NCBI GenBank assembly: GCA_965207275.1
Contig: CBDBMH010000001.1
Coordinates: forward strand, 553,244-617,243
Source of the DNA: Dehalococcoidia bacterium
GTDB taxonomy: Bacteria > Chloroflexota > Dehalococcoidia > Lucifugimonadales > UBA3495
Length of the DNA stretch: 64,000 bases
Direction of reading: 5' to 3'
Both the position numbers and the translations under genes were made by a program. Under the pieces are notes generated by a model. It did not search any database. It was not told where the DNA came from and saw only the letters and a program-made list of their open reading frames with translations. Each line of letters opens with the position of its first letter. The first letter of the stretch is position 1. Shown one piece after another: positions 8,937 to 58,600 of the stretch.

Positions 8937-8946
8937 TCCTTCCCTC

Positions 8947-9261: not shown

Positions 9262-9404
9262 AGATTTCTCTCCTTGCGTGTTCAGGCTTGGTCCGTTCAG
9301 CTGCTGATTGGGCGGTCAGCTCCGTTGTCCTACTGGCACATGGCTCCACCTCCCGGGATGGATGGCGGCGCGAGACAGGTCCGCGCCCGTAGTTGTCGTT
9401 GCTG

Positions 9405-34410: not shown

Positions 34411-37400
34411 CTGGCGCCGGCGTATTGTTCACCGCCGGCTGGTCGGCGAAGGCCACCGCTACCGGGCTGTCGCCCGGGACGTAGCTCACCGTGACGGTCT
34501 GGCCCGCATGCACCGGCGCCGCCAGGGTAAGAGTGATGGTGTCGCCGGTGGTCACCGGCCTGGCGTCGGCCAAGCTCACCGCCGCGCCGTCGGCCTTCAG
34601 CACGAACTGGTCCGCTGCGGGCCAATCGTAGCTCCAGCCCAGGTCGCCGTCGAACTCCAGCGTCACCGTCGCGCCGTCCACCGTCGCGGTTGACAGCGAC
34701 GGGCAGCCGAAGTCCTCGCGGGTGGTGCGGAAGGTCGCCGTCACCGAGCCGGTGGCGCCGTCAGGATCGGTCGCCGTCATGGTGACCACCGACTCGTAGG
34801 TCTGCGGCAGCGGCGGGTCCAGGGAGGCCAGCGCGCACTCGGTGTTGGCCTTGAAGAAGATGCGCTGGGTGGCGTCGCTGTACAGCAGATCGCCCGGCAC
34901 GTGCACGTCGTCGCGGACGGTGCTCAGCGAGAAGGTCAGCGCGTCGCCGTCGGGGTCCCGGAAGTCGGCCTTGGACGCCACGAGGCTGACCAGCGTGGCG
35001 GACGGCGCGTTCATACTGCCCGGCGCGTCGCCCACGAACATGGGCGCCCGGTTGGCGCCGCCCGGCGGCGACTGCGGCGGCGGCAATTGCCAGTCCACCT
35101 TGTGGTCCGGATCGTGGTCGAGGCCGTCGTGGGACAGGTCGGCGTCCGTCTGCGACGACGCCGAGACAATCGCGCCGCCGTTCAGTTCCAGGGTGTCCGC
35201 CAGCACGGCGATGCCCCGGGTGGACAGGTTGGGCTCCACCACCGGGTGGAAGAACACCAGCTCGTTCGTGGCGCTGCCGCTCTCATAGACCGCCCACTGT
35301 TCGCCCCAGTCCGCCGGGTCCATGTCGATCTTCAGGCGGGGCCGCCCGCCCGTGGTGGCCACATCCATCGCCTTGCTGAAGGTCAGGCGCACGCGGACTG
35401 TCTCGCCCATGGCGTAGGTGTCATCATCCCCAGGGTCCGAGGTAATTGACACGGCGTTCACCGTTGGCGGGTGGCCCACCGTGTTCACCACCGGCATGTC
35501 GATGACGTCGGCTATCTGGTTGCCGTCGATGTTCCACAGCCCCGGGTGGCCCCGCGGCCGCCGGTAGCTGAACGAGATCGTCTCGCCGGCAACAAAGTCG
35601 CGGCTCAGCGACAGCACCAGGCGACTCGCGTCGTCCGGATCAAACGCCGCCGCCGTCACCGTCACCGGTCCGCTCGACGCCTTGACCGTGAACCACTCCG
35701 GCTGCGGCTGGTAGTCGGTGTCGAAGGGGCGCGTGCCGTGCAGGATCAGGCTGCCGATGGTCGGTCTCTCGAATCCCGGCACGCACGTCTCCGTCCCCCC
35801 GTAGGTCACCGCCTGCCCGGAGATGTCGTTGGCCTCGGTGTCCCACAGGTTGCGCAGCCCGCCGCTGGCAGGCTTGGCGTAGCTCACCGTGAAGCTGTCG
35901 GTGCAGGGATACAGCTTTTCGGGCAGGCCCAGTTCCACCTTCTTGCCGCGCACCACGACGCTTTCGGCGGAGAACCACACATGGGAGAACGTGAAGGCCG
36001 AGGCCGCCGGCACGCTGGCCGGGTCCAGCTCCTTGTCGAAGGTCAACGTCAACACACTGCTCTGGTCCGCCGAGCCATCGCCGACGCCGGCCGTGTACAC
36101 CTTCGCCGACGCCACCGCCGGCGCGCCCGTGTCGGTGGGTCCCAGGTTGGTCATTGCCTCGTTCGAGAGGTTCCCCGCGTTGGCGCCGGCCAGGTCCCGG
36201 ACCGGGTTCGTGCCCGGCGCCGTGTAGGACACCGTCACCGCGCTGCTCGCCGCCACCGACGAGGCCAGGGTCAGCGTCACGGCGGTCTCGCTCACCGCGA
36301 CGCTACTGACCGTCACCCCGCTGCCCGCCGCCGTGACCGTGAAGGCGCTCGTAGCGGGCACCGAGCCGGTGTCCAGCGCCTCGTTGTAGTACAACGTGAC
36401 CTTCGTCCCGGCGACCACTGCCGAGTCCAGCGCCGGCGCGCTCGCGGCGGCCACGTTGGCCCAGATGCCGTTAATGTACTCCACCGGCGAACCGGAGGAC
36501 GCTCCCCGCAGCGGGTTCGCGTCGTCGCCCGGCGGGTCGTAGTACACCCGGGGCGTATGGCCCACAGGTACCGCTGAGGCCAGCGGGACCGTGACATGGT
36601 TCCCGTTCACCGTCGCCGTGCCCATGCCCTGAACCTGGGTTGACGTGCCGGTGCCGGCGCCGGTGCCGTTGACGCGGATCAGAGCAGTATTGACGGCGAG
36701 CCATGCCCAGCTCCCATGGCCACGTTCGTAGCTACCGTTTTCTATCGACCAGCCGGGCTCTCCGCCCGTATCTTCCCCGTGATCCGCCGTCATGCTGAGC
36801 GTTCCCGTGTTCGTCGAGTCCACAACCACGTAGTACGTCGTGTTGGCTGCAAGCACCTTGATCGCCGGCGCGGTGAAGGTGAGGTTGCCGGCGGCCAGCG
36901 TCGACGGATTGGTCAGCGTGGCAACCTCTGTCCCCGTATGAGTGTCCTGAAGGACCCTCACCCTCAAATCCGAACCTGGCGCAATGCTGAACTTCACGTC
37001 GACGCTGGTCAGGGTCACCGTGCTTGACCCCGTTGTGAACCCTTGGGCAGCGGTGGTATTCCGAAGAAGATGGCCTCGCGATGGGTCGACTGACTTCCCG
37101 ATGTTCGAGACCAGCACGCCCGCGGTGGGGATGGGGGCCGAACTCTGCACCCGGAACCGGCTTCCCGCCGGGGCCCAGCTCTCGTCCAGGGCCCGGTCGA
37201 AAGTCAGCGTCAGCTTCGCGCCCTCCACCCGCGCCGCGACGGGCACCGGGGGCGGGTCCGCCGCCGGCCGCGCCGCCGTAACGGTGAAGCTCCCCAACTT
37301 GTCCCCGCCGGCATACCGGAGGCGTTGCCCGTCGCCCGACCCTTCCGGGATGTAACTCACCGTCGCTTCCTTGCCGATGGGGACCCCCGAGCCCAGGGTC

Positions 37401-42773: not shown

Positions 42774-43175
42774 ATGAGGTTAATACCGTCGCAGTACATA
42801 CCGCTCATAGCGCTTGCGGCAGCAGTTTGCCTGATGGCCGCAACATCTTGCGGCGGAAATGACGAGGAGAAGCAGAGGGCTGCGGAGAGGACGCCGGCGC
42901 CCCCTGCCAATGAGACCGTCCCTGGAGAGATGGAGACTGCGGCGCGCACGTTTCTGGGCGGTGAGCTGGGTGTTGACGAGGGGGGACTCAGCCTCGTCAG
43001 CTCCGAAGGGATGCAGTGGTCCGACGCCAGCCTGGGATGCCCCCAGGAGGGCATGAGGTACGCCCAGGTGATTACTCCGGGCTACAAGCTGGTCTTCGAT
43101 TTGGCGGGTGCGTCCCACGCGGTGCATACCAACTCGGACGGGTCGCACATGGTGGTCTGCGGGGACGGGCGGTAG
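42774..43175 (+). CDS. Putative lipoprotein (133 aa)
   Basis: Signal peptide plus lipobox-like IPLIALAAAVCLMAATSCGG. Last GC-rich gene before the island. Confidence 0.55.
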   Translation: MRLIPSQYIPLIALAAAVCLMAATSCGGNDEEKQRAAERTPAPPANETVPGEMETAARTFLGGELGVDEGGLSLVSSEGMQWSDASLGCPQEGMRYAQVITPGYKLVFDLAGASHAVHTNSDGSHMVVCGDGR

Positions 43176-43291
43176 GGCTGGTAGGCGATTCGGCGGGTTG
43201 GCTGAATTGACTCCGCCAATGAGCAGTGTCTTGACCAAGATGCACTGAGTAAGCTCACATCTCAGCGATTGCTGAAAGAGAGGTGAAAGAA

Positions 43292-44149
43292 ATGAGTACG
43301 CTGCCAACCGTGGGCCCAATTGGGCCGGCAGATACCCAAAGACTATTCGAAGAATTGGCCGAATTGACGTGGGGATGGCTGGCTGACGCTAGGCGCTTGG
43401 GTTTAGGGTTTTCCGAAGATACCATTTCCGACTTAGCCATGCTGGAAATTGGGCGTTCTGGCTCAAACAGCGTCGGAGTTAAGCGGGTTTCGAAGCGCCG
43501 AGAGCGGGTTGTGGGATTCGACTGGCTATGGGTGATTCTCAGGTCCGGCCGGCTACCCACGTTCTATGTTGTTCAAGCGAAGAAACTGCAACTGTACGAA
43601 AGGCCTCCATACTCATACGGAAGACTGAGGTATCCCACCGGAGCAAATTACCAAATCGACGCCCTTGAGGACTTCGCAAATTGGTTAGGTGCGGTTCCGA
43701 TGTACTGCTTCTATAACAATGTTGATGACCTGACTGCCCAATTACATTGGAATTGTCAAATACAGCGGCCCCCGAATCCTCTCCAAATGGGATGCACTCT
43801 CGCCCCTCTGGATGTGGTGCGACCAATCCATGATGGCAGAGGCCCCAAGAACTTCCACGCGATTCATTGGAGGAACCCGGAAGCTCTACCTTGGAGGTGC
43901 CTGTTTCATCCCTCTTGCGCCAGTTTCAGTTTGGGCCCAGCATCAGACAGCCACCCTATCGCAAATAGGAGTGAAGGGATGAACAGGATGCTCGAATTCC
44001 TTCCAGTATTGACCTCGGGAGACGAGGATTGGATCGACGTGGAGGAACTCGTCCGCCAACTTGACCTCGACGAATTGGTCGACAGGTATGAAAGCCGGAG
44101 TTTCACACCAATACCTGACAGGATTTTCTTTGCCAATCTGGAGGACTAG
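43292..44149 (+). CDS. Restriction-endonuclease-fold (Mrr-like D...QxK) protein, island gene 1 (285 aa)
   Basis: GAGAGG SD 8 nt before the ATG. Putative PD-(D/E)XK elements are LAMLEIG (E), VVGFDWLWVI (D) and FYVVQAKKL (QxK), followed by NYQIDALEDF. The fold call is an inference from the motif pattern. Confidence 0.45.
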   Translation: MSTLPTVGPIGPADTQRLFEELAELTWGWLADARRLGLGFSEDTISDLAMLEIGRSGSNSVGVKRVSKRRERVVGFDWLWVILRSGRLPTFYVVQAKKLQLYERPPYSYGRLRYPTGANYQIDALEDFANWLGAVPMYCFYNNVDDLTAQLHWNCQIQRPPNPLQMGCTLAPLDVVRPIHDGRGPKNFHAIHWRNPEALPWRCLFHPSCASFSLGPASDSHPIANRSEGMNRMLEFLPVLTSGDEDWIDVEELVRQLDLDELVDRYESRSFTPIPDRIFFANLED

Positions 44150-44291
44150 CTAGCTTATGCTTATCGACGGCTTTGCCAGTCCTCATCGTTTCGCGGGGTC
44201 AAGGTCCGTTGCGTCAACCAGACGGAATACGAAGGGGTCGAGACTAGGGGCACCATCCGGCAACGTGTCGAACCGTCATTTGGGGCGTGAT

Positions 44292-44314
44292 TGGTGTTGT
44301 ATAATACATCACCA
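44292..44314 (+). promoter_or_regulatory. Palindromic operator overlapping a TATAAT -10 box upstream of the HTH gene
   Basis: TGGTGTTGTAT-A-ATACATCACCA forms 11-bp arms with one mismatch. TATAAT at 44300-44305 lies inside it, about 40 nt upstream of the ATG at 44343. Confidence 0.5.
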
Positions 44315-44342
44315 CTATCGCGTCCGCGTGGACGGAGACAAC

Positions 44343-44543
44343 ATGACGATGCCAGAGGAGTTCACGGTACCCCAAGCGGCGACCTACCTCAAGGTAAGTG
44401 AGGAAACCGTCCGAAGGAACATTCGGGCGAAGCGCCTTTCGGCGCTGCGACGGGGCACCCAATGGTTCATTCCTTCCGAGGTGTTGGTGCTGTTTGCCAA
44501 CTCATACGATCCGAAGACAGGGAAGATAAAGCGGATGCTCTAG
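44343..44543 (+). CDS. Excisionase/MerR-type helix-turn-helix protein, island gene 2 (66 aa)
   Basis: FTVPQAATYLKVSEETVRRNIRAKRLSALRRGTQWFIPSEVL is the classic excisionase-family DNA-binding pattern. Confidence 0.75.
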   Translation: MTMPEEFTVPQAATYLKVSEETVRRNIRAKRLSALRRGTQWFIPSEVLVLFANSYDPKTGKIKRML

Positions 44544-44609
44544 CGCCCCTTGGCACTTGAACCCTTGGCCGCGAGGAAGTAATGCAGATCAATACGTCCG
44601 GGAAACTAC

Positions 44610-44638
44610 TTGACTCAGACTAGTGGGTGCATAAGAAT
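44610..44638 (+). promoter_or_regulatory. Candidate promoter TTGACT-17 nt-AAGAAT upstream of the GHKL operon
   Basis: The -35 TTGACT is at 44610-44615 and the weak -10 at 44633-44638, about 50 nt upstream of the GTG at 44690. Confidence 0.3.
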
Positions 44639-44689
44639 GCGCCCGCGTAACGGAGCGGCACCGACCTGCTCTCCCAGGGAGAATATCTC

Positions 44690-46564
44690 GTGAACGAACG
44701 ACCCTCATGGTACTTCCCACCTAGAGGTTGGGGACTGGATGTAATCCAAGACTCGTCCAGCACACACTTTAGGGACGACCCCATTCCAAAACTCGTCAGG
44801 GAGGTTTTGCAAAACTCCCTGGACGCTAATGACAGGGATTTAGTCGGCCCGGTAGAGGTGGAGATCGCCGAGAGCTACGTTGATGGCCGGACCATCGGTG
44901 CCAAAGAGCTGCAGAAGCACCTGGATTCGTGCTTGGAGAGGGCGAAAGAGGAAGACAGAAAAAACGTCCAAGCGTTTTACGGCAGGGCTCTGCAGGCGCT
45001 CGAGGCCGAAGAAATCCGGTGCCTTCAGGTCGTAGACGCCGGTACACTGGGACTCGTCGGCCGCAGCTGGGACGCTCTCGTGTTCCAAGAAGGATCAGTT
45101 CAGAAATCGGGGGCCGCTCCCGGTGGGTCTAACGGTGTGGGGAAAAACGCGGTGCTCAACGTAAGCGATCTTCGCACCGTGTTTTACAGCACCAGATATA
45201 TTCAACGGCGTGAAGGCAGGGTGGAAAAGCTCCAGGGCAAGGCCACCTTGATGGACCATCGCAACCCCCAGGACAAGAGCGAGAGCCTACAGCACGTTGG
45301 CTTCTATTCGATGCCTCAAGGGGAGCCGGTTTTGACTACGCAGATTCCCGGCTTTTTCCGGCTCGACGACGTGGGGACCGGTGTATTCATCATGGGATTC
45401 AACCCCAGGTCGAATGATTGGACCAGGGAAGTAACCGCTGCGGTCATCGAGAATTTCTTTCACGCCATACATCACAAGAAGCTCGTCGTCAGAGTAAAGA
45501 ACCGCATTGATGACCCCATTCTGATTAACCACGAAACCCTTGACTGGCTCTTCGAGCGTGAAAGCAGCAATAAACCGGCATTTCATTACTACAAAGCTAT
45601 CAGAGACGTGGAACCGGGGGAGACAGACCCTATCGGAAAAATTGGGCCGCTCAACGCATACGTTTTCATCGGTTCCGGTCCTCGCAGGACCGCATATATA
45701 AACCGCAATGGGATGCTAATCACCGACAGCCGTGAGCAGAAAATCAATCCAATTGCTCCGCGTGGCAAGAGCCTGTGGCCGGATTACTGTGTCGTGGTGA
45801 CGCCAGAATCCGACAGGGGAGACGAATGGATAAGGCAAACGGAGAACACAAGCCATGACTCCATGTCGCCCCGACAATGTTTCGAGGGTAGGGAGCTGAC
45901 CGAGGCGGAGCGCTGGTTCAGGCAGGCCAGAAACACAATAAGCAAGATCATTGACGATGCCGCCCAGGTGCAGAAGTACGGCGATACCACCAATCTGAGT
46001 GAGTTGGCGTCCATGTTCCCGGACGAGTTTGACCCCGAAAGCCCAGGGAACAAACTGCTGAAGACGAAGACCACCAACACTAGACTCGTAATACCCCCGT
46101 CCGTTACACCGGACCCGGAGTCTGGTCCAGATCCCGAACCGGGGCCGGGTCCGGGGCCTGACCCTGATCCTCGTCCCAATCCTGGCCCGGGACCTAGGCC
46201 AGACCCGGGACCAAATCCGAGGCCAGGGCCGGTGCCAGGCCCGGGGCCGGGCCAAAGAAGAAGCCGGCGGCCACGTATTGAACGTCCGCGCTTGATTCCC
46301 ACGGACCGGACTTCGGCTACAGTGGCGTTCACCCCAATGAGTGAAACGCCGCAGGAAATAGCCATCCGATTGAGACCGGCCGGAGGCGAGTGGGGCCAAG
46401 AAAATCCAATCGAGGTCGTGAGTGCTAAGGTCGTAAGCCCGGCGGGCCAAGAAGCCAAAATTCAAGACGGGTCGGTTCAATTGACTCCGCAATCCAACGA
46501 GCGAGTGGTGATCGAGATAGAGACCAGCGATGCGCTTGACGACTTTGCATTCAGGATAGGGTAA
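44690..46564 (+). CDS. GHKL/Bergerat-fold ATPase (Hsp90/sacsin/MORC-like), island gene 3 (624 aa)
   Basis: N-box REVLQNSLDA, DxGxG VVDAGTLGL, G-loop GGSNGVGKNA. Pro/Gly/Asp-rich linker (DNA 46108-46255), then a ~100-aa C-terminal domain. GTG start with GGGAG SD. Confidence 0.75.
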   Translation: MNERPSWYFPPRGWGLDVIQDSSSTHFRDDPIPKLVREVLQNSLDANDRDLVGPVEVEIAESYVDGRTIGAKELQKHLDSCLERAKEEDRKNVQAFYGRALQALEAEEIRCLQVVDAGTLGLVGRSWDALVFQEGSVQKSGAAPGGSNGVGKNAVLNVSDLRTVFYSTRYIQRREGRVEKLQGKATLMDHRNPQDKSESLQHVGFYSMPQGEPVLTTQIPGFFRLDDVGTGVFIMGFNPRSNDWTREVTAAVIENFFHAIHHKKLVVRVKNRIDDPILINHETLDWLFERESSNKPAFHYYKAIRDVEPGETDPIGKIGPLNAYVFIGSGPRRTAYINRNGMLITDSREQKINPIAPRGKSLWPDYCVVVTPESDRGDEWIRQTENTSHDSMSPRQCFEGRELTEAERWFRQARNTISKIIDDAAQVQKYGDTTNLSELASMFPDEFDPESPGNKLLKTKTTNTRLVIPPSVTPDPESGPDPEPGPGPGPDPDPRPNPGPGPRPDPGPNPRPGPVPGPGPGQRRSRRPRIERPRLIPTDRTSATVAFTPMSETPQEIAIRLRPAGGEWGQENPIEVVSAKVVSPAGQEAKIQDGSVQLTPQSNERVVIEIETSDALDDFAFRIG

Positions 46565-46569
46565 CGGCA

Positions 46570-47421
46570 ATGACCACCTGGAACGACAGATTGCTCCCTC
46601 ACCCTTTGTTGGCGCCTTGGACGGACGACTACCCGGAGGCGGCCTTTACGGCGCAAGTTCCGCACGCCGTGATTAACAATGGCAAGCAAATCAACTTGAC
46701 CATCAAGTATCACCTGACCAGCCAGTCGCTTCGGGACTTGATCTCAGAAGGCAAAGCCCACTACGTAAGCCTGGTGGCGTGCGCAAAGACCTTTAGCCGC
46801 AATTCCTATCCCTGCGAACACGAGGACGACCTCTGTATCCTGGACGCCCAGGACTTCTCTGAGGAACTCAAGCTCACTCCCTATGTGGTAGCCAAGCAGC
46901 CCATAGACGGATTCACGTCCTCCGAACTCGTGGACGAAATCACCCGTTTCAAGCCAGATGGGTTCCACATTCCAACAGGGTCGATACTGGCCGTCGGAAA
47001 TTCTACTGAGGTGGAGTTGGAAGAAGGGGGTAGTCCCTTTGCGGTTATCGACCTGGTTGCTGACGCCAAAGTCGAAAGCGGCACATTCAAGGTCGATCTT
47101 GATGATAACCGAATAAAAGTCTACATGGCTCCGGGGGACAAAGACCAGATCGAGGCGCTGCGTCAACACGGAGAACAAAGCTGGGAAATGGCAGTGTTGT
47201 TCCCTTCCATCTATCTCCATGCGATTTCCGAGGCGTTGCGGAACCTGGCCTACTATCCCGAAAACCGCTGGGCGCGAACCATGCAGAGGGCGCTTGAACG
47301 CCACAGCATAGTAGTTGACGAAGACGAACTGAAAGATAATGCACTTACCCACGCGCAGACCCTCATGGAGCGGCCTGTGGGGACGTTGATGAAAGCCCTC
47401 AGCCGCGAGGAGGAGGGTTAA
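46570..47421 (+). CDS. Hypothetical protein, middle gene of the GHKL/PP-loop operon (283 aa)
   Basis: 6-nt gap from the upstream gene and a TAATG overlap with the downstream gene. No motif recognised. Confidence 0.6.
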   Translation: MTTWNDRLLPHPLLAPWTDDYPEAAFTAQVPHAVINNGKQINLTIKYHLTSQSLRDLISEGKAHYVSLVACAKTFSRNSYPCEHEDDLCILDAQDFSEELKLTPYVVAKQPIDGFTSSELVDEITRFKPDGFHIPTGSILAVGNSTEVELEEGGSPFAVIDLVADAKVESGTFKVDLDDNRIKVYMAPGDKDQIEALRQHGEQSWEMAVLFPSIYLHAISEALRNLAYYPENRWARTMQRALERHSIVVDEDELKDNALTHAQTLMERPVGTLMKALSREEEG

Positions 47422-49043
47422 TGGAGATGGCTGCGCAGGAATTCCAGATTTTAAGGCTGACGCAAGAGGCATACGACCAACTCTGGTTGTTCGCTAGGGA
47501 GAATCCAAAAGCCTATCTCGACCCTGACACAGACTTCAATCGGGTCCTGCTTGACCGCGGCGTTACCGACTATGCGGAGGATACAGGGATTGTTGCTGAC
47601 AGCCCCATAAGTCTCACGCCAGTGGAGAGGGTCCCAGCGAATCGGGCAGACCGGCAGGCCTTGGACTTCCACCGTTCGATGCCAGATTTGACTCCCAGCG
47701 CCGCTACCGACAGCCTGATGTGGACCTGGATGACCCATTTCAGGTTGCACTCGTACAGTATCAAGCGCTGGCGCTTGCAGGGGGACCTGACCAATCACAT
47801 CAGGAACCACTGGTTCGTGGGAAACGAGTCGGACGCCCTACGTCAAAACAACACCGCGTCGCGTACCTGGTGGATTGCCAACACGGCGATCAAGGCAGCA
47901 AAGGCTTCGGGAGGCGCCTTCACCGAAGAGGAGGCGATAAATCATTTCGCCAATAACCCCCGCCACTACCACAACATGATGGACTCGAACTTCAGCAGAC
48001 ATCCGGTCGTATGCGCCGAAATGTTGCTGGCGCTCATGACTGAGGCTAGAGGAATCTCTGGGGTGGGTTCCGACCAAATCTGGAAACGGATGAATTTAGC
48101 CGCCGGAACCCTGCTACTGGACGCGATGCCCAGGGAGCAGCTAAGGGAGCGCATCAACCACCACATCGACGAAATAATGTCGGTCTCTGACTTCGTGACA
48201 GACCGTACCAAGCTGCGGAATCGTGTTCCTTGTCGTGTACTCAGCCTGGGGGCAGGGGTTCAATCATCCTGTCTGGCCCTGCTTGCTGAACGAGGGGAAT
48301 ATGGCCTTCCCAAGCCCGACTTTGCCATCTTCGCCGATACAGGCTGGGAACCTCAGGCCGTTTACGACCACCTAGATTGGCTCAAATCGCAGCTCTCATT
48401 TGAAGTCATTCGTGTCAACAATGGGAACATTCGGGAAAACATACTACAAGGCCGGATGCCCGACGGGTCGAGGTTTCTAGGAATTCCCGCGTTCCTGCGC
48501 AATACTGACGGAAGCACCGGTATCCTGCACCGACAATGCACGACCCACTATAAGACAAAGCCAATCCACGATTACCTCAGAGACAGGCTAGGACTAAAGC
48601 CCGGCAGGAGGGCCCCTTCCGACGTCCAAGTGGAAATGTGGCTTGGAATAAGCACCGACGAAGCGATACGACAGAAGCCCGACCAGGAGGAATGGGTCAC
48701 AAAGCGGTACCCGCTCATCGACTTGGGGTTTAGCCGAGGTCAGTTGTTGAATTGGTTCAGAGAAAATTACCCTGGCCACCATTTACCTAGCAGTTCCTGT
48801 GTCGGATGTCCGTACCACAGTGACTCGGTCTGGAAGCAGTTGAAGGAAAGCGACCCCAAATCCTTCCAGGATGCTGTCTTCATCGACCAGGCGCTACGCA
48901 ATGTCCCTATTGTAAAAGACACGGTCATAGGAGAGGCATATCTCCATCGATCAAGGACCCCGCTGTTGGAAGTGGATCTTGAGGAGATACCCAGTTATGA
49001 AGACTTAATGCTGGATGAATGCGAAGGGCTTTGCGGGATTTAG
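47421..49043 (+). CDS. PAPS-reductase-like PP-loop enzyme with a ~270-aa N-terminal helical extension, island gene 5 (540 aa)
   Basis: PP-loop variant RVLSLGAGVQSSCLALL, then FADTGWEPQAVYDH. C-terminal Cys pair SSCVGCPYHS. I do not recognise the N-terminal half. Confidence 0.75.
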   Translation: MEMAAQEFQILRLTQEAYDQLWLFARENPKAYLDPDTDFNRVLLDRGVTDYAEDTGIVADSPISLTPVERVPANRADRQALDFHRSMPDLTPSAATDSLMWTWMTHFRLHSYSIKRWRLQGDLTNHIRNHWFVGNESDALRQNNTASRTWWIANTAIKAAKASGGAFTEEEAINHFANNPRHYHNMMDSNFSRHPVVCAEMLLALMTEARGISGVGSDQIWKRMNLAAGTLLLDAMPREQLRERINHHIDEIMSVSDFVTDRTKLRNRVPCRVLSLGAGVQSSCLALLAERGEYGLPKPDFAIFADTGWEPQAVYDHLDWLKSQLSFEVIRVNNGNIRENILQGRMPDGSRFLGIPAFLRNTDGSTGILHRQCTTHYKTKPIHDYLRDRLGLKPGRRAPSDVQVEMWLGISTDEAIRQKPDQEEWVTKRYPLIDLGFSRGQLLNWFRENYPGHHLPSSSCVGCPYHSDSVWKQLKESDPKSFQDAVFIDQALRNVPIVKDTVIGEAYLHRSRTPLLEVDLEEIPSYEDLMLDECEGLCGI

Positions 49044-49084
49044 AAACTGCACATGTTCCAAATTTGTAGCTGGCAGCACAGGCG

Positions 49085-49591
49085 ATGAGCACCGACCGAG
49101 AATTCTTCGACGACATCATTTCCATTCTGCAAAAGCATAGGTTGAGGTTCGTTCATTCTCCCCAGATGTGGCAGCAGTGCAATCTGCCGGTCACCCTGGA
49201 ATGGAATTCAGTGGAATTTTCGGAGAATAACGGTGACAGCGTTCCTTCGGATAAGTTTGGAGTCTACGCCTTTATGTTGGAGCCAAATTTCGCCGGTCCG
49301 CCTAAATCCGCATATCTGCTTTATATAGGAAAAACAGGCCGGCATTTTCAGGTGAGATACAAGGAGTACCTCTACGAAGAAGATCAAGGATTTGCCCGTC
49401 CCCCGATTTCCAGAATGCTGGAAAGGTGGAGCGGACACATTTCATTTCACTATGCTCCGATTGAGGATCCGGGTTTGCTTCGTCGAACGGAAGAGGCTCT
49501 CTTAAATGCCTGTATCCCTCCATACAATCGACAGTTCACGGGAAGAGTCGGAAGGGCAATTATGGCCTTTCGGCAGGATAGCGGAGGTTAA
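49085..49591 (+). CDS. Stand-alone GIY-YIG nuclease-like protein, island gene 6 (168 aa)
   Basis: GIY element FGVYAF. YIG element YLLYIGKTGRHFQVRYKEY with the conserved Arg. Distal EEALLNACIPPYN (Glu/Asn). Confidence 0.65.
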   Translation: MSTDREFFDDIISILQKHRLRFVHSPQMWQQCNLPVTLEWNSVEFSENNGDSVPSDKFGVYAFMLEPNFAGPPKSAYLLYIGKTGRHFQVRYKEYLYEEDQGFARPPISRMLERWSGHISFHYAPIEDPGLLRRTEEALLNACIPPYNRQFTGRVGRAIMAFRQDSGG

Positions 49592-49597
49592 TCCGAC

Positions 49598-50917
49598 ATG
49601 ACAACTTCATCGTCAACAAAACTCTTGCCCGCAATCCAAGGAAAGATAGGAGACTGGTACTACTATATGACCACGTTGCCTCTTTCTGAAGTTGCAGAAA
49701 GAGTCCAGCCAGCCCGTGAGTTAGTAACTCCGAAGGACATGAACGAGTGGATTCAACGAGAGGTAATTCCAACCCACATCCGACAGATAGCGGATTACCT
49801 CATGCACCGAGAACAGCATTTCTTCCCTGCCATCGTGGTTGGGGTTTACCTTGGAGAGCCAACTTGGCATGAAATTAACATAGAGGAAAATGCCCTCTTC
49901 GAGACTCCAGCCCTCGACCCCAGGTCGAGGTCCACCCTTGGCTTACTGGAACTGGATGGTACGGAGCGGTTGTACGCAATAGATGGTCAGCACCGCGTAG
50001 CGGGAATAAAGAAGGCGCTTGCCCGTTTAACCAAAGCGAATGATACTGAAGGCTATAACCGTCTGGCCAGTGAAGATCTGGCGGTAGTTTTTGTTTCCGC
50101 AGATATCGATAGGGAAGGCCAACGTGAACGAGTGCGCAGGCTATTTACTACTCTTAACAAGCAAGCGAAAAGGGTAACCGAGCCTGAAATCGTCGCCCTC
50201 GATGAGGACGACCCCGCTGCGATAGTTACTCGTTGGATCGCGATTCGCTATTCTGGATTGAAGGCGTTCAACCAAAACGGGAGTGAATCTGACCACAATC
50301 TCATTCAGTTGGGAAGGCAACACGAGATACGGCCGAACAATCGACGGAGCGTCACGACCATTGTAACTCTGTACCGCATGATAAAGAATGCGTTCCAGTT
50401 GGAACTCAAGGAAATCGCAGCAGAAAATAATCACGGTCGGCCTGCCGAAGAAACGCTAGAGAACCTCTACTCCAAGGCCGAGGCGCTATGGGATATGCTA
50501 AGGCTCTACGATCCGGCACTAGGCTATGTGTTGGCGTCCGACCCAAGTGATGAGCGCGCCGCAGCGTACCGCACCCTAGAAGGGGGACACATGCTGTTCC
50601 GTCCTGTAGGTTTGCAAGCGTTTTCTGGGGCTTTGGGGGTACTACGCGTGAGGGGGGTAGATACGGACTTAGCGGTAAGAAGCCTGTGCCGCCTACCGAC
50701 GGAGATCTCAATACCGCCTTGGGAGCACGTAGTTTGGAATCCCAGCACCCGCGGCATGATTACAGCGAACAGGACTCTGGCCGAAGCGCTATACCTTCAC
50801 ATGGTGGGGGAACGACCTCGGACGCTGAGGTATCCGATAGGAACTAAATACCGGGAGGCACTCGGCATACGAAACGGAGACCCATTGCAACAGGTAACGG
50901 TATTTGGGCTGGAGTAG
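49598..50917 (+). CDS. DGQHR-domain protein (DndB/DpdB-like ParB-fold), island gene 7 (439 aa)
   Basis: Exact motif LYAIDGQHRVAGI. N-terminal GKIGDWYYYMTTLPLSEVA...REV..THIRQIADYL resembles DndB-type proteins. Confidence 0.8.
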   Translation: MTTSSSTKLLPAIQGKIGDWYYYMTTLPLSEVAERVQPARELVTPKDMNEWIQREVIPTHIRQIADYLMHREQHFFPAIVVGVYLGEPTWHEINIEENALFETPALDPRSRSTLGLLELDGTERLYAIDGQHRVAGIKKALARLTKANDTEGYNRLASEDLAVVFVSADIDREGQRERVRRLFTTLNKQAKRVTEPEIVALDEDDPAAIVTRWIAIRYSGLKAFNQNGSESDHNLIQLGRQHEIRPNNRRSVTTIVTLYRMIKNAFQLELKEIAAENNHGRPAEETLENLYSKAEALWDMLRLYDPALGYVLASDPSDERAAAYRTLEGGHMLFRPVGLQAFSGALGVLRVRGVDTDLAVRSLCRLPTEISIPPWEHVVWNPSTRGMITANRTLAEALYLHMVGERPRTLRYPIGTKYREALGIRNGDPLQQVTVFGLE

Positions 50918-51147
50918 CCCTTCCTAGAACGGTTAACGTGCTAGTCCGTGTCTAGGTACACGTTGCGGAGGGTCTGTTAAACGGTCGTGGCCGTAAACGT
51001 GAGGTATCAAGGATTAGTCAGCATTTCTACTGGCTGCGCAGAGCCATAGTCCATGCTTTGACGCACCTCCTTCACAGGATGATCGCTCATATTCAGGGAT
51101 TGTCCTGATGACCCGAGGTATATCCCAGTTCCGAGGAGGCCCCGATA

Positions 51148-54100
51148 ATGGCGGGAACAGAAACCTTGAAAGATTTGTCGCGTGTTCAATCCTCCGTTGA
51201 TCGACTGGTCAATGCGTCAGAGGACCAACTGCCATCGGCCTTTGAGGAATTATCCCGGTCGATTCTTGAACACTATGGCGTAACTTACGACTCGACGGCC
51301 ACCAGTAAATTGTTCTCTCGTGATTTGCCTTTACCGGTTCAGAGCTTTGCGGCTACTTGGCTGGTTCGCTGCCTGACCAGGTCTTCCTCGGCACTCAGAT
51401 TTGGACATACTGAGCGACTAGCAGCCGACCTGTTCGACCAAATCTTCCAACACAATGTTTACCAGCGCGCCAACATTGACCATCGACAGCAGACTTTTGA
51501 GAAGTTACGAGCTTTAGAAGGGCATTTGCATTCGATATTGATTGATGCCGAAGGGCTGGTGTCAGTCTCTCCAAATCTAGGTCAGCTTAACTCCTTCCTT
51601 CAAAGACTATTGGCCTTCTTAAATCATCGTGGGAATCAACCTTTTCTAACCCACCTTTTGCCCGCTCCGTTGCTTCATCAGTCCCGAATCGCCAATTTGT
51701 TTCAAGTTGTAGCCGACTACGCTGACAATCTAGACGGTGATCCCATTCATAAGCGCGATGCTGCAGTGGAAGCTTGTGAGGAATTCGAAAGGGAGGCGCA
51801 GGAATTCGGCACTATAGATGCCGAGCGCATTCTAGGTGCCCTAGCCCGGCAGCTCAAGTCGGCTGTAGAGAGCCATTTCGAATCTTCGGAATCGGGCAAG
51901 AGCCCGACCCTTGCGTTCGGCCCCATTAGCAAGAAATATCCTTTGGAAAGGGTTAGTGAGACTGTTTCCTTCAGAATCAAAGTGGACAATCACGGCACCG
52001 GTCCGGCAAGGGACTTGAGGCTTGATGGAGTCGCAGTCGACGAGTGTCTTCTTATTCAGGCTTCCTCCATTGGTCTTGGAACCCTACAGCCCGGGGATTC
52101 CTTGGTCTTCGACATCGTGGCAAGTGTGGTTGCACCTTCCTCAGGGGCAACAATGGTGGCAGAATTTTCCTGGAGTTCGCCCGGGGGGAGGGTAGGGGAA
52201 ACCCACACTTTCGAAGTTCCTGCGCAACGAGGGGATGTTAATTGGGTTTCAGTAGAGCTCACTGAGCCTTATTCGCTGGAGCCAGTAGCCACAGAGGACG
52301 ATCTTATTGGCCGGAAGGCAGAGCTGACCCGCTTGCTTCGACTGGCCAACAGCCGGACAGTCGGGTCTGGGTTCATCTTTGGTCAAAAGAGAGTAGGCAA
52401 GACATCACTGGCTAACGCTGTTGAAGAGAGCCTTGAATCGAGTTCTGACATCAAATGGGTCGTGATAAACAAGGGTAGCGGGGATTACGTAGGAGACGAT
52501 GCTCATAGCAGTCTGCGAACGATGGGAGAAGTCCTGGCAGAAGCTATCATAGACCGAGTACCACATCTGAATGACACACCTATCCCGGACTTTACCAGTG
52601 GGCTCTCTCCTCTGTCTCGTTTGGTAGATCAAGCTCTCGTCCAAGGAGACCTGCGAATTCTATTCATTTTGGATGAATTCGATGAGTTGCCACCCGAGCT
52701 GTTCAGACGGACTGATCTGGCGACGGCTCTGTTTCAGCCACTGCGCCAGATAAGCAACAAACGAGGTTGTGGGTTCCTCTTGGTAGGGGGAGAAAGTATG
52801 CAGCAAATTGTCAATTCTCAAGGGGATCGCCTCAACAAATTCACTCCCATTGAACTAGACTACTTCACCAGATCAAACAACTGGAATGATTTCGTCGAGC
52901 TCATTAGGAGGCCAGTACAGGATTGGTTGACCATAAGCGATGGCGCTCTTGAGGAACTTTTCACTTCCAGTGCAGGGAATCCGTATTTCGCCAAGCTGTT
53001 GGCACGCCAACTGTTTGCAGATATGGTCGACAATCGCTATAGCGATGCGAGTGAAGTGGATATGGGTACTGCGATAGACCATACACTGTCCACAATTGGA
53101 GCCAACTCTTTCGCTCACTTCTGGACTGACGGTTTAGCCCAATCCCCTAACAACGCGGAAGAGATACGCATAACCAGGCGATCAGTCTTGATTGCAGCTG
53201 GCCGGGCCTTTCGGAAAAACCCTTTTGTCAACTATGAAGGCATTTGGGAGGAATTCAAGCACGCAGCCGGGTTGCCGGTAGAGGAACAGCGTTTTCGGAT
53301 TACATTGCAAGACTTCCTTCGTCGGAAGATATTTGTGGAGGATGAAGCTGGCGGCGTTAGTCCCAAGATTCCGCTATTTCGGTCTTGGCTGATGGACAAA
53401 GGGGTTAGAGACCTATTGGAGGATTCTCAAGAGCTAGATTACTTGAGGTCCAGGCTGCAAGAAGAAGAGGAAGTGCGGGTAACGGACGGTGAAATCTTGT
53501 GTCTCTCCGAGCGTCTGGAGAATTTCCGCTATCGCGGCCGCGCTATTGAGACGACGGCGATTAGGAGATGGCTCGGGCAATTCGACGGCCCCAGGGAACA
53601 GCGGTTGATGTTCCGGTTGGCATCGGCCGTGAGGTGTTACGACGAAGATGCCGTTCGGACCAAAATGCGCGAGGCCTTCGGTATCGTAATGCGGAATATG
53701 CGTACCGTAATCGAGCCAAGGGCAAGGGTACGCAATGACATCCTAGTTAGCCCTCTGGATGATTCACCGGCTAAGTCGGGATCGACCTATTGCCGACTGT
53801 TCGTCAGTGAGAACAGATTATCGACTAATTCAGTTCATACTCTGGAATCGCTGGAGCGAAGGTTTCCAACTAATAATGAGGTTCAACGCCTTGTGCTCAT
53901 TGATGATTTCTCTGGTACAGGGGCGACTTTGGCTGGCGGACTGAAACGGCATTCAGACCTTCTTCGCCGCCTGAACTCGGAGGGCGTCCGTATAATTGTC
54001 ATAGCCTTGGTAGGATTTTCGGAAGCCCGCGAACACATCGAGCACTTTGTCGAGCAGGCAGGAATCGAGGCTGATGTCTATTTCTGCGACGAGTTGGGCC

Positions 54101-54330
54101 CAGAACATAGAGCTTTCTCAGAGTCCTCCTCTATCTTTCCAGAGGTCGCTGAACGGGACCTTGCCAGACAAATTGCAGAGTCCAGGGGTGTGGCACTAGA
54201 GCGGAGGTTCCCCCTCGGGTACCAAGACACACAAGGGTTGATCGTCTTTCACCAAAGTTGTCCAAATAACACGTTGCCAATCTTTTGGTCTCGGAATGGG
54301 GATTGGAATCCATTGTTTCCGCGCATCTAA
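51148..54330 (+). CDS. Multidomain P-loop (STAND/ORC-like) NTPase with a beta-sandwich module and a C-terminal phosphoribosyltransferase domain, island gene 8 (1060 aa)
   Basis: Walker A GQKRVGKTSLANA and Walker B RILFILDEFDEL, preceded by LIGRKAELTRL. CARDB-like stretch KVDNHGTGPARDLRL...LGTLQPGDSLVFDI. PRPP-binding loop RLVLIDDFSGTGATLAGG. GAGGAGG SD. Confidence 0.75.
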   Translation: MAGTETLKDLSRVQSSVDRLVNASEDQLPSAFEELSRSILEHYGVTYDSTATSKLFSRDLPLPVQSFAATWLVRCLTRSSSALRFGHTERLAADLFDQIFQHNVYQRANIDHRQQTFEKLRALEGHLHSILIDAEGLVSVSPNLGQLNSFLQRLLAFLNHRGNQPFLTHLLPAPLLHQSRIANLFQVVADYADNLDGDPIHKRDAAVEACEEFEREAQEFGTIDAERILGALARQLKSAVESHFESSESGKSPTLAFGPISKKYPLERVSETVSFRIKVDNHGTGPARDLRLDGVAVDECLLIQASSIGLGTLQPGDSLVFDIVASVVAPSSGATMVAEFSWSSPGGRVGETHTFEVPAQRGDVNWVSVELTEPYSLEPVATEDDLIGRKAELTRLLRLANSRTVGSGFIFGQKRVGKTSLANAVEESLESSSDIKWVVINKGSGDYVGDDAHSSLRTMGEVLAEAIIDRVPHLNDTPIPDFTSGLSPLSRLVDQALVQGDLRILFILDEFDELPPELFRRTDLATALFQPLRQISNKRGCGFLLVGGESMQQIVNSQGDRLNKFTPIELDYFTRSNNWNDFVELIRRPVQDWLTISDGALEELFTSSAGNPYFAKLLARQLFADMVDNRYSDASEVDMGTAIDHTLSTIGANSFAHFWTDGLAQSPNNAEEIRITRRSVLIAAGRAFRKNPFVNYEGIWEEFKHAAGLPVEEQRFRITLQDFLRRKIFVEDEAGGVSPKIPLFRSWLMDKGVRDLLEDSQELDYLRSRLQEEEEVRVTDGEILCLSERLENFRYRGRAIETTAIRRWLGQFDGPREQRLMFRLASAVRCYDEDAVRTKMREAFGIVMRNMRTVIEPRARVRNDILVSPLDDSPAKSGSTYCRLFVSENRLSTNSVHTLESLERRFPTNNEVQRLVLIDDFSGTGATLAGGLKRHSDLLRRLNSEGVRIIVIALVGFSEAREHIEHFVEQAGIEADVYFCDELGPEHRAFSESSSIFPEVAERDLARQIAESRGVALERRFPLGYQDTQGLIVFHQSCPNNTLPIFWSRNGDWNPLFPRI

Positions 54331-54660
54331 TAGAGGTTTGTGGAAATCCATCGGTAGCGCGAAGCGCCGTTGCATACACGCATTCAAAAGTCCTACTGCT
54401 GCTCAATCCGTCAATCGGGAGTTTCTAGTACAACCGTCTTCCAGTTTGGTATTATAGGGTCACTAGCATCTCGAAGATGGTACTGTCTACCGTCAAGTCC
54501 GGCCCACCAAGCTGGATAAAATCAAGAACTTTCCACATCAGGTTCGCCCTGGACTTGTAGGCGCCCTTGGCCGCGCCCACTGTGAGGCCGCGTTTGGCCC
54601 TGCTGGTGGCAAAGGCGGCGAGGCGGTTGCAAACGGCCAATCACTGCACGGCAACCAAGC

Positions 54661-55657: not shown

Positions 55658-58600
55658 CTAGTCGTCGTCCACGATGGTCATGGTTCCCACCGCGTCGGGC
55701 GGGTGGTAGTTCCCGGGCAGGAACGCCTCCACCGCGAAGTACTCGTCCGGCTCGTCGTCCTCGTCCTGCTCCAGCCACACCTCCGCCGTCAGCACCGTCA
55801 CTCCCGGCTTGAACACCAGTTCTCCCTCCGCCGGCTGGTAGTCGGACCGGTGCGCCCGGTCGTCCAGCAGGTGGTAGGCCGGCGCGGTGTACCACCGCAC
55901 CCGGATCTCCTCGGTGGGCGCCGCCGACAGCGCCACCCGGAACTCCAGCACGTCGCCCTCCACCGCCGAGGCGTCCGCCACGGTCACGCTGATCTCCACC
56001 TCCGGGGCCGCGTCGTCGTTGTCGGCCACGGCCACCGTGGCCGCGCCCTGGGTCGAGGACACCGTGTAGTCGCTGCCCGCGTTCACCGTCGCCGTCACCG
56101 ACCCGTCGGTCTCGTCCGCGCTATCGTCCGTGGTGCCAACGGTCAGGGTGACGCTGCCCGTGGTGGGGACGGTCACCGTGCGCTGTCCCGTGGCCGCGCC
56201 GTAGTCGCCGGTCTGGGTGACCGTGACCTTCACGTCCAAGTTGGACGCCGGCGCCGGGCTGGCGCTGACGGTGAAGCTCGCGCTCCCGCCCTCGGTGATC
56301 CCGCCGCCCCCGCTGACGCTCACCACCGGGGTGGGGGCGTCGTCGTCGTCGGACACGGCCACCGTGGCCGCGCCCTGGGACGAGGACACCGTGTAGCCGC
56401 TGCCGGCGTTCACCGTGGCCGTGACCGAGCCGTCGGCCTCGTCGGCGTCGTCGTCGGTGGTGCCCACGGTGAGGGTGACGCTGCCCGAAGTGGGGACGGT
56501 CACCGTGCGCTTGCCGGTGGTGGCGCCGTAGTCGCCGCTCTGGGACACCGTGACGCTGACGTCCAGGTTGGACGCCGGGGCCGGGCTGGCGGTCACCGTG
56601 AAGACGGCGTCGCCGCCCTCGGTGATCCCGCTGCCGCCGCTGCCGCTCACCACCGGCGTGGGGGCGTCGTCGTTGTCGGCCACGCCGACCGTGGCCGCGC
56701 CCTGGGACGAGGACACCGTGTAGCCGCCGCCGGCGTTCACCGTGGCCGTCACCGACCCGTCGGCCTCGTCGGCGCTGTCGTCGGTGGTGCCGACGGTGAT
56801 GGTGACGCTGCCCGAAGTGGGGATCGTCACCGTGCGCTTCCCCGTGGCCGCCCCGTAGTCGCCGCTCTGGGACACCGTCGCGCTCACGTCCAGGTTGGAC
56901 GCCGGGGCCGGGCTGGCCGTCACCGTGAAGACGGCGTCCCCGCCCTCGGTCACCCCGCTGCCCGCGCTGACGCTCACCACCGGCGTGGGGGCGGCGTCGT
57001 CGTCGGACACGGCCACCGTGGCCGCGCCCTGGGTCGAGGACACGGTGTAGCCGCTGCCCGCGTTCACCGTGGCCGTCACCGACCCGTCGGTCTCGTCGGC
57101 GCTGTCGTCCGTGGTGCCGACGGTGAGGGTGACGCTGCCCGTGGTGGGGATGGTCACCGTCCGCTGGCCCGTGGCCGCGCCGTAGTCGCCGCTCTGGGAG
57201 ACCGTGACGCTGACGTCCAGGTTGGCCGAAGGCGCCGGGCTGGCGGTCACCGTGAAGACGGCGTCGCCGCCCTCGGTCACCCCGCTGCCGCCGCTGACGC
57301 TCACCTCAGGCGTGGGCGGCGGCGGAGGCGTCTGTGCCGCCTCCGCTTCCAGGGCGGTCAGCTCGACGACCACCAGGTCCCACACCGGGCTGCTGTGATT
57401 GTCGGCCATGTCCTGCGCCTCGGCCGCCGTCATCGGGCCGCCGGTGACGCCGGTGCCGTCGTGCTTGCCGAAGGCCAGCAGCACCCGGTTCCAGCGGTTA
57501 ACGTGGGCCGTCCCGTGCTGCGTCTGCGACGCCAGCTCCCTGACCTTCGCGATCACGTCCGGGTCCACCGTGTAGCCCGTCTGCTCCTCGACGACCGGGT
57601 CGTCGTTGTCTGCGACGCCGACCGTCTCCGACGACGGCGCCCCCACCGTGTAGCCGCTGCCCGCGTTGACGGTCAGCGTGACCGAGCCGTCGGCCTCGTC
57701 CACCTCGTCGTCCGTGGTGGCGATGGTCACCGTGGCGCTGCCCGACGTTGGGATGGTGACGCTGGCGGGCAGCGTCCCGTACCCGAAGTCCCCGGTCGTG
57801 GCGACCGTGACGCTCACCGCCAGGTCCGCCGCCGGGGCCGGGCTGGCCGTCACCGTGAAGACGGCGTCCCCGCCCTCGGTCACCCCGCTGCCCGCGGTGA
57901 CGCTCACCTCCGGCGTGGGGGCGGCGTCGTCGTCCAGCAGCGGCAACGTGACGCGGGAAGGGTCGCCCAGCGTGTAGCCCTCGCCGACCACAATTTGCGC
58001 CACCAGCGTGCCGTCGGACAGCGCGTCGTCGTCGGAGTAGGCGATGATGGTCTGCGATGCGGACGACTCGAAGGCCTTGATGACCAGCGTGAGGAACTGT
58101 TCACGCGCGACGCGGTCCGCACCCTCGCCCATCTCCTCGATAACGCTCACGATGACCGGCGTGTCGACCGGCGGGACCGGGCTGGCGCTGACCGTGAAGG
58201 TCACGTCGCCGCCCTCGGCCGCCGACAGCGCGTTGCTGGAGAGCGTCATCGTGGAGCCGTCGTTGAGCGTCCCCAGCGCCGAGAACGCGCGGCGGATCTC
58301 CGGCGGCGCAGTGGACGGCGGCGTGAACTGGTTGCAGTCCACCTTGACGCTGAACTTGTTCGACGGCCAGCCGGACGGCGACTGCAACTGCACGCAGAAC
58401 GTCACGGCCTCCCCCGGCACCTCGTCGTTGCGCAGGGTCACCGGCGTGATCGTGATCCGGTAGACCGGGTCGCCGGGGTTCGAGCGGTCGCGGTACGTGG
58501 TCTTCAGGCCGGTGTTGACGATGCCCGCCCTGTACGGCTCCTGGTTGACCACGCCGTCGTGCCCGATGACCCGGTCAACACGCCGCGAGTAGATGTACGT

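Follow-up and report, generated by a model that had tools for sequence, protein, structure and literature searches.

SspE and DndI have been shown experimentally to act as phosphorothioation (PT)-sensing effectors, each joining a nucleoside triphosphatase (NTPase) of the ParB superfamily (DUF262, with a DGQQR motif) to an HNH nickase, and in both, self DNA that carries PT modulates the NTPase, by which DNA binding and nicking are controlled (PMC9646914, PMC11662687). The dndI gene is situated between the genes of the writer and those for restriction, and shares a transcript with dndFGH (PMC11662687). The related regulator DndB acts as a repressor of dndBCDE (PMC4507180). Additionally, a 2024 survey of Dnd systems places URI/GIY-YIG endoDNases at the boundaries of the modification systems, sometimes on the opposite strand (PMC10853773).

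Here we describe a pair of adjacent genes in a 64,000-nucleotide (nt) stretch of the genome of a Dehalococcoidia bacterium (Chloroflexota; assembly GCA_965207275.1, contig CBDBMH010000001.1, positions 553,244 to 617,243 of the forward strand), hereafter the window. The first gene encodes a small GIY-YIG nuclease and the second a protein with a DGQHR motif, and both follow a three-gene PP-loop module, PDC-M33ABC (hereafter M33ABC). We find that these two genes are kept together far beyond chance, in a near-obligate pairing of fixed order. We propose that they may constitute a portable two-protein PT-coupled restriction effector, a split analogue of SspE and DndI; on genomic context and the analogy with those systems, we regard this proposal as evenly poised.

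The pair invites comparison with SspE (PMC9646914; PDB 7DRR/7DRS), which combines a ParB-superfamily DGQxR NTPase with a DNA-nicking nuclease, as the pair is predicted to do, and which is an optional add-on encoded beside a PT writer, its gene directly following sspABCD. However, SspE is a single polypeptide of DUF262 (DGQQR) and a DUF1524 HNH domain, whereas the pair comprises two chains, a DndB-type DGQHR protein and a GIY-YIG protein, and we found no significant sequence or fold match between the DGQHR protein and SspE. DndI of the IscS-DndBCDE-DndI system (PMC11662687; PDB 9JFL) is similarly encoded near a Dnd writer and coexists with DndB, but it too is a single chain of DUF262 and HNH domains, whereas the pair is split, employs GIY-YIG and has only a proposed capacity for PT sensing. 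The type IV enzymes GmrSD and BrxU (DUF262 with DUF1524) likewise couple a ParB-like NTPase to a nuclease that discriminates modified DNA, but with another sensor subfamily, another nuclease fold, a single chain and no link to PT. Finally, the URI nucleases of the Dnd survey share the boundary position of the pair, but are treated there as stand-alone backup suicide effectors, and in the survey's text and one supplement we found no mention of a near-obligate partnership with a distinct DGQHR family or of Ssp, M33 or BREX-like contexts (PMC10853773).

The nuclease gene and its DGQHR partner

Evidence for a functional unit comes from the conservation of the pairing itself. When species-representative genomes were searched from the nuclease side, the DGQHR gene was found immediately downstream in all 14 loci, which derive from Dehalococcoidia, Anaerolineae, Latescibacterota, Syntrophorhabdales, Bryobacterales, Hadarchaeota and Thaumarchaeota. 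Sampling from the DGQHR side gave 80 metagenome loci at 33-40% identity, five of them cut off by the contig end, and in 73 of the 75 testable loci the nuclease gene lay immediately upstream; the other two lack an upstream nuclease, and one of these carries an IS5 transposase in its place. Both genes are also present in four of four viral-contig loci and on both of the RefSeq plasmid examples inspected. In all pairs but one, the match envelopes of the two hidden Markov models (HMMs) lie approximately -12 to +42 nt apart and often overlap, and the pairwise identities of the two proteins correlate with r = 0.84 (74 non-redundant pairs; Mantel test, 0/999). Because the genes are adjacent in nearly all loci and their identities correlate in this way, they behave as one unit. 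A pairing that was first noticed in the window alone is retained with hardly an exception in bacterial as well as archaeal phyla, the cassette ranging over Chloroflexota, Acidobacteriota, Desulfobacterota, Latescibacterota, Alphaproteobacteria and archaea. We also considered whether the pair belongs with the downstream gene for an AAA and PRTase protein or with the upstream DUF6615 gene (Table 1); both possibilities were rejected, as neither gene is kept with the pair in any locus.

Both open reading frames (ORFs), and all the motifs quoted for them by an earlier, sequence-only reading of the window, are present at the positions given in Table 1. The nuclease stop codon and the ATG of the DGQHR gene are separated by 6 nt, and a Shine-Dalgarno-like GGAGG situated 10 nt ahead of that ATG falls within the 3' end of the nuclease gene, which suggests coupled translation of the two genes.

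Membership of the 168-amino acid (aa) protein in the GIY-YIG nuclease superfamily is solid, and is demonstrated at the level of the family. The protein itself matches no Pfam model even at E<=10, no NCBIfam model and no PADLOC model, and a phmmer search with it against the PDB retrieved no solved GIY-YIG structure, the sole match being a spurious peroxin. A word-indexed search recovered 44 clusters of close homologues, none of them Pfam-annotated, and the profile of these close homologues (A1) found no GIY-YIG match in the PDB, so that a broader profile (A2) was required. The exhaustive profile search expanded the family to 753 representative clusters, counted at 50% identity, nearly all of them 155-180 aa in length. 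Among 140 aligned representatives, 78 match the GIY_YIG_2 model PF20815 (best 1.3e-6) and 57 match PF01541 (best 9.8e-7); furthermore, all seven matches of profile A2 in the PDB are GIY-YIG enzymes, with the N-terminal domains of UvrC at E values of 5e-4 to 0.02 and T4 EndoII at 0.086. The motif series GIY...YIG...R(x3)[YH]...E...N is present in canonical order (G59-V-Y61, Y80-I-G82, R91, Y95, E136, N148), and G59, Y61, G82, R91, Y95 and E136 are conserved in 74/74 non-redundant relatives, Y80 in 73 and N148 in 69.

An AlphaFold2 (AF2) model of the nuclease (predicted local distance difference test, pLDDT, 71.6) shows the strand-strand-helix-helix-strand-helix core that is expected for GIY-YIG, beginning at residue 59. 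When this model was compared with the PDB by Foldseek, the top match was T4 EndoII, albeit not a significant one (E=0.28, probability 0.69, template modelling scores 0.39/0.48). The original assignment of the ORF is therefore upheld by family-level HMMs, matches of profiles to the PDB and catalytic residues, with weak support from the fold search. The catalytic core spans approximately residues 57-150. The sequence-only reading had described a nuclease without any appended domain; it is indeed a stand-alone nuclease, but the core is preceded by a conserved N-terminal extension of approximately 55 aa (W29, W40, P54).

The 439-aa partner exceeds the cut-off of TIGR03187 (99.9 bits against 58.85) and matches the Pfam DndB family PF14072 at 7e-26, and its D129-G-Q-H-R133 motif is invariant in 74/74 relatives, which bears out the earlier description of a DndB-type protein with an exact DGQHR motif. 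Its N-terminal half comprises the DndB-type ParB/Srx-like domain, in which R180, F183 and N187 are also invariant, and its C-terminal portion of approximately 190 aa is all-helical and confidently modelled (pLDDT of the AF2 model 82.5), with R325, W375 and W380 invariant. No recognizable relatives of the helical domain were found by PDB profile search or Foldseek, and a DUF1524/HNH nuclease domain was sought in the chain and none was found. The family is large, with at least 964 clusters at 90% identity.

It was important to establish whether this protein is simply DndB, a candidate identity that we reject owing to its sub-cut-off score and the presence of true DndB in the same loci. Against the canonical DndB model TIGR03233 (cut-off 328), which is the second-best NCBIfam model for the protein, the window protein scores 42.7 bits and the homologue in locus L085 scores 51.6; hence the family stands outside canonical DndB even where relatives adjoin dndCDE. 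The DpdB model NF041060 gives 15.5 bits against a cut-off of 300, and TIGR04172 (PT-associated DGQHR protein 1) gives no match in the window and 20.6 bits for the L085 homologue against a cut-off of 450. In loci L052, L082, L085 and L087, a canonical DndB scoring 391-541 bits is encoded upstream of dndC beside the pair, whose own DGQHR protein scores approximately 50 bits. DndB remains the closest sequence family, sharing the DGQHR motif, the PF14072 N-terminal region and the linkage to PT clusters (TIGR03233; PMC4507180), but it is approximately 360 aa long against approximately 440 aa and is encoded first, before dndC, whereas the DGQHR gene follows the GIY-YIG gene and never comes first before dndC; it closes writer or restriction operons at their 3' end or is encoded on the opposite strand. 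RefSeq names the nuclease 'hypothetical protein' and its partner either 'DGQHR domain-containing protein' or 'DndB'. On Rhizobium plasmids, RefSeq labels the partner 'DNA sulfur modification protein DndB', probably in error.

Phosphorothioation islands and the exchangeable cassette

The genomic contexts of the pair were counted in 49 loci of at least 10 kb, within the flanks that were fetched. PT-writer genes are present in 40 of these, namely Dnd in 23, M33 in nine, Ssp in five and both Ssp and Dnd in three, with M33 counted as a writer. The remainder include loci with SspG-SspH-pair, PglZ-BrxL-pair, a giant HerA/DUF87-ATPase protein and a PAPS-reductase gene (3'-phosphoadenosine 5'-phosphosulfate reductase). 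In L008 and many others, the pair follows dndC, dndD and a gene in which DndE is fused to a HerA/DndH-like ATPase, with dndA on the opposite strand; in some loci it is convergent with a dndBCDE operon. It is found within an Ssp operon in L014 (sspB-sspC-sspD-pair-sspA), and on plasmid pROLI83 of Roseobacter litoralis B14 (L105, NZ_CP143425.1) it follows sspA-B-C-D in the usual position of sspE. Additionally, it occurs as PbeA-PbeC-x-pair beside dndCDEA (L010), after SspG-SspH (L053), ahead of sspF-G-H on the Ti plasmid of Rhizobium sp. K1/93 (L104, NZ_CP072148.1), after PglZ-BrxL (L065) and after a giant protein that contains a HerA/DUF87 ATPase and a sigma-70 region 4 helix-turn-helix (HTH) and is possibly DndH-like (L077). 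The association with a PP-loop operon noted in the window is real, the pair lying directly after it there, but it is not specific, since the pair is also found in Dnd, Ssp, BREX-like, SspFGH and Pbe contexts. As writers of each kind exist without the pair, the pair is not core modification machinery.

The fusion of DndE with a HerA/DndH/mad8-like ATPase, a protein of approximately 494 aa, is encoded directly upstream of the pair in L008 (8430-9914), L022, L036, L040, L044, L049 and L093. This protein may work with the pair.

Comparison of the window with related loci bears on the exchange of the pair. The window and L004 share 86.3% nt identity over 44341-49043, as far as the M33C stop codon, and approximately 68% in the pair. 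In L005, an L004-type pair (84% identical) is preceded by the last 51 nt of M33C only, beyond which the DNA is unrelated. The pair lies on the strand opposite to the M33-type module in L015, and opposite to the writer in loci of the L085 type. Four contexts of M33C homologues were sampled, of which two intact M33ABC operons (L100, L103) and one operon ridden with insertion sequences (ISs) lack the pair and one has it. Because the recombination breakpoint falls at the M33C stop codon and M33ABC occurs without the pair, the pair is a separate cassette, exchangeable, separable from M33ABC and optional for it.

At L100 7677-9592, the slot after M33C holds a HIT-family gene, a 275-aa gene and an HD-domain gene instead of the pair, and these may form a different accessory cassette that uses this position. 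In L005, where the M33 writer has been lost, the pair adjoins a thymidine-hypermodification gene; just upstream of it, at 8812-9765, is encoded a 5-hydroxymethyldeoxyuridine (5-hmdU) DNA kinase helical-domain protein (PF18723, 2.7e-110).

The module behind which the cassette sits in the window is itself of interest. M33C is the presumed modification enzyme, and M33ABC, with its PAPS-reductase fusion, is a probable DNA-sulfur (PT-type) writer to judge from its domains; it looks like an uncharacterized one, but may instead correspond to the published TdpABC PT system. The best PDB match of a profile of the M33C PP-loop domain (A4) was the entry named 'PptA' (21fy_C, E=7.5e-5), with PAPS reductases next, and sequence searches with M33A, M33B and M33C found nothing meaningful in the PDB. 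In a second M33 subtype (L007, L011, L013, L015), a cysteine desulfurase and an independent SspD/BrxP-like protein are present as well, and because of these additions the interpretation of M33 modules with a PP-loop enzyme as sulfur-type DNA writers is strengthened. PADLOC gives SspD/BrxP-like matches for the 453-aa ORF of this subtype, and the L011 relative of M33A has a weak HATPase_c match; jackhmmer and hhalign provided no firm link of the 304-aa and 453-aa ORFs of the second subtype to the two halves of M33C. The pair itself matches no PDC-M33 model, and our literature search found no paper on DUF6339 or PDC-M33.

A candidate restriction effector and its alternatives

A two-protein PT restriction effector is proposed because the pair mirrors the logic of SspE and DndI in split form and takes the genomic positions of sspE and dndI. 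The DGQHR protein would be a DndB-type ParB/Srx-fold NTPase that reads the state of the DNA, PT-marked self as opposed to unmarked foreign, and that switches by binding or hydrolysing nucleotide. The GIY-YIG protein would bind to it, probably through the N-terminal extension, and would nick or cleave unmarked invader DNA. The logic of SspE and DndI would thereby be divided over two polypeptides, with a different nuclease fold and a DndB-like sensor instead of a DUF262-like one. In the window, the cassette would be plugged in behind PDC-M33ABC, presumed to be a PT-type writer by virtue of the PP-loop domain of its C protein. The direction of control could be either DndI-like, with the nuclease active unless PT is sensed, or SspE-like; the two loci in which the pair has no adjacent writer (L005 and the Rhizobium plasmid) fit SspE-like discrimination slightly better. 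For the pair, we infer complex formation, PT sensing, NTPase activity, the nuclease target and the defence phenotype alike. The idea of a sensing and restriction arm, raised by the sequence-only reading, appears on genomic context and the analogy with SspE and DndI to be the best-supported explanation.

That reading was also aware of no described GIY-YIG and DGQHR module, and the pair is indeed undescribed in the literature that we found, although the occurrence of URI/GIY-YIG nucleases near Dnd is noted in general terms (PMC10853773). Searches for GIY-YIG together with phosphorothioate, DndB or ParB returned general mentions only and no description of the pair, and in the papers that we found to name DGQHR no nuclease partner is described.

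A bolder version of the proposal can be offered only tentatively. A DndB-type ParB-fold protein, so far known solely as a transcriptional regulator, might here serve a GIY-YIG restriction nuclease, acting in trans, as its nucleotide-switched reader subunit. The two proteins could then form a universal PT reader-cutter that plugs into every class of backbone-sulfur writer, including a hitherto unrecognized one composed of a GHKL-like ATPase, M33B and a DUF6339-PAPS-reductase protein (PDC-M33), with or without a cysteine desulfurase.

Several observations weigh against a split effector. By sequence, the nearest relative of the sensor domain is DndB, which represses transcription (PMC4507180), and not DUF262; the window protein reaches 18.1 bits against the DUF262 model PF03235 (cut-off 33.2), over residues 161-199 only. 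It has no PADLOC match to SspE, a profile of its family (A3) has zero matches among PDB sequences, and a Foldseek search of the PDB with its AF2 model ranked BrxU top at E=0.31 and SspE at E=3.2, neither being significant. The relatives listed, 120 of the DGQHR protein and 150 of the nuclease, include no fusion of GIY-YIG with DGQHR. Furthermore, the pair lacks a PT writer in the fetched flanks of L005 (+/-10 kb) and of the Rhizobium plasmid (+/-9 kb), and for M33 modules we infer PT writing as well. Lastly, the pair often adjoins other complete restriction modules (SspFGH, Pbe), and may thus have an auxiliary part instead of being the restriction arm proper.

An alternative that we consider unlikely is that the pair controls modification: the DGQHR protein would be a DndB-like, NTP-modulated repressor or limiter of PT writing, and the GIY-YIG protein would assist modification, for instance by making nicks at which sulfur is inserted or by trimming sites that are over-modified. 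Such a role would suit a protein whose best sequence relatives are DndB-type (PF14072 at 7e-26, with TIGR03233 as second-best NCBIfam model), given that DndB represses dndBCDE (PMC4507180). Canonical dndB is missing upstream of dndC in many Dnd-type loci with the pair, such as L008, and Ssp modification does employ a nickase, SspB. However, canonical DndB is encoded alongside the pair in the four loci named above, and a part in the core chemistry is contradicted by M33ABC, which manages without the pair, and by most known dnd and ssp clusters, which lack it. A specific writing role is also hard to square with the unrelated DNA-handling subunits of the writers served (DndD/E, SspB/C, the GHKL protein M33A and BREX-like components), with the exchange of the pair independently of the writer, or with its position directly adjoining restriction modules that have no writer in the fetched flank (L053, L104).

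Alternatively, the pair could be an abortive or backup 'suicide' effector or an addiction module, in which the GIY-YIG protein is an indiscriminate toxin restrained by the DGQHR protein and freed on failure or loss of the main PT system. The proposal for stand-alone URI/GIY-YIG nucleases at Dnd edges made in the Dnd survey (PMC10853773) and the toxin-regulator-like tightness of the gene pair both speak for this, but the partner is a large protein of approximately 420-440 aa with a strictly conserved enzymatic motif and no small antitoxin. Moreover, L005 retains an intact pair though the adjacent writer has been lost, and we regard this explanation as improbable.

PT linkages are chemically labile to oxidants, and a maintenance or repair function is conceivable in which a ParB-like protein that reads PT directs a UvrC-like incision nuclease to damaged PT sites, for example oxidised or desulfurised ones. 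UvrC GIY-YIG domains are indeed the best solved relatives of the nuclease profile, and a repair role would be compatible with the linkage of the pair to every type of PT writer and its coexistence with other restriction modules. We nevertheless judge it quite improbable, for the pair shows faster divergence than the writer and behaves as an exchangeable cassette, a pattern more typical of conflict genes; it resides on plasmids and viral contigs and in defence islands beside SIR2, PIN and PLD-helicase genes, and no other repair genes are linked to it.

Although many free-standing GIY-YIG genes are homing endonucleases, and although the cassette edge shows a sharp identity breakpoint with a 51-nt co-transferred flank in L005, a selfish homing cassette that cuts cassette-less alleles with a ParB-like helper, its link to PT being incidental, is very improbable indeed, since the upstream neighbours differ (M33C, a 304-aa ORF, the DndE-ATPase fusion, SspD, SspH, BrxL and a 150-aa ORF after PbeC) and so offer no common homing site, the context is always PT-related, and the active-site motif of the conserved DGQHR partner is intact.

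The island in the window and the significance of the cassette

In the window, the pair resides in an island at approximately 43.0-54.4 kb, which is distinguished by a low G+C content (51-57%, against 65-74% in the flanks) and in which all genes are on the plus strand (Table 1). The island contains no tRNA, no match to an Rfam family and no integrase gene, the excisionase-type HTH being the only feature of this kind; most of the gene for that protein, from 44341, falls within the 86%-identical block common to the window and L004. A scan of 43000-54600 for promoters and terminators gave no excess over shuffled sequence, and no site between M33C and the nuclease gene.

Table 1. Features of the island, with positions in the window and the evidence for each
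Feature	Position	Strand	Evidence
DUF6615 protein	43283-44149	+	
Excisionase-type HTH	44157-44543	+	
PDC-M33A: GHKL-like ATPase with proline-rich linker, first of the three-gene PP-loop module	44690-46564	+	PADLOC PDC-M33A 1.4e-65
PDC-M33B	46570-47421	+	PADLOC PDC-M33B 7.5e-36
PDC-M33C: DUF6339 fused to SspD/PAPS-reductase-like PP-loop domain	47421-49043	+	PF19866 2.4e-22; PADLOC M33C 6.5e-22, SspD 6.2e-11
Stand-alone GIY-YIG (URI) nuclease, 168 aa, ATG start	49085-49591	+	ORF, family profiles, residue conservation, AF2 model
GGAGG, Shine-Dalgarno-like, for the DGQHR gene	49583-49587	+	Sequence
DGQHR-domain protein, 439 aa, ATG start	49598-50917	+	TIGR03187, PF14072, AF2 model
1060-aa AAA/STAND-like ATPase (central) with C-terminal PRTase-CE domain	51148-54330	+	PADLOC PRTase_III-A 6e-36

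Several defence candidates are stacked in the island. The 1060-aa AAA and PRTase-CE protein is a separate one, and is not kept beside the pair in any relative. A sequence of approximately 31 nt at the right-hand boundary of the island (54466-54498), overlapping a 62-aa ORF on the minus strand (54452-54640), has two further copies in L005 (5812-5842 and 7384-7415) that are 94-97% identical; it may represent the end of an IS or some other short mobile repeat. On either side of the island lie giant high-GC ORFs on the minus strand, of 2456 aa (32657-40027) and 1912 aa (55658-61396), both with internally repeated, surface-protein-like segments and unrelated to the pair.

The characterized effectors of PT defence are, to our knowledge, few: DndFGH, DndI, SspE, SspFGH, PbeABCD and TdpAB. 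Were the pair a split analogue of SspE and DndI, it would represent a new class of effector with a different nuclease chemistry, and would provide both a functional handle on the role of DndB-type domains and a natural system in which sensor and cutter are separable for biochemistry. Furthermore, the presence of the pair flags PDC-M33, with its PAPS-reductase fusion, as a probable new DNA-sulfur writer. The cassette is widespread and unstudied, and its occurrence in culturable carriers, including Roseobacter litoralis B14 (pROLI83) and the Ti plasmids of Rhizobium, renders these prospects directly testable.

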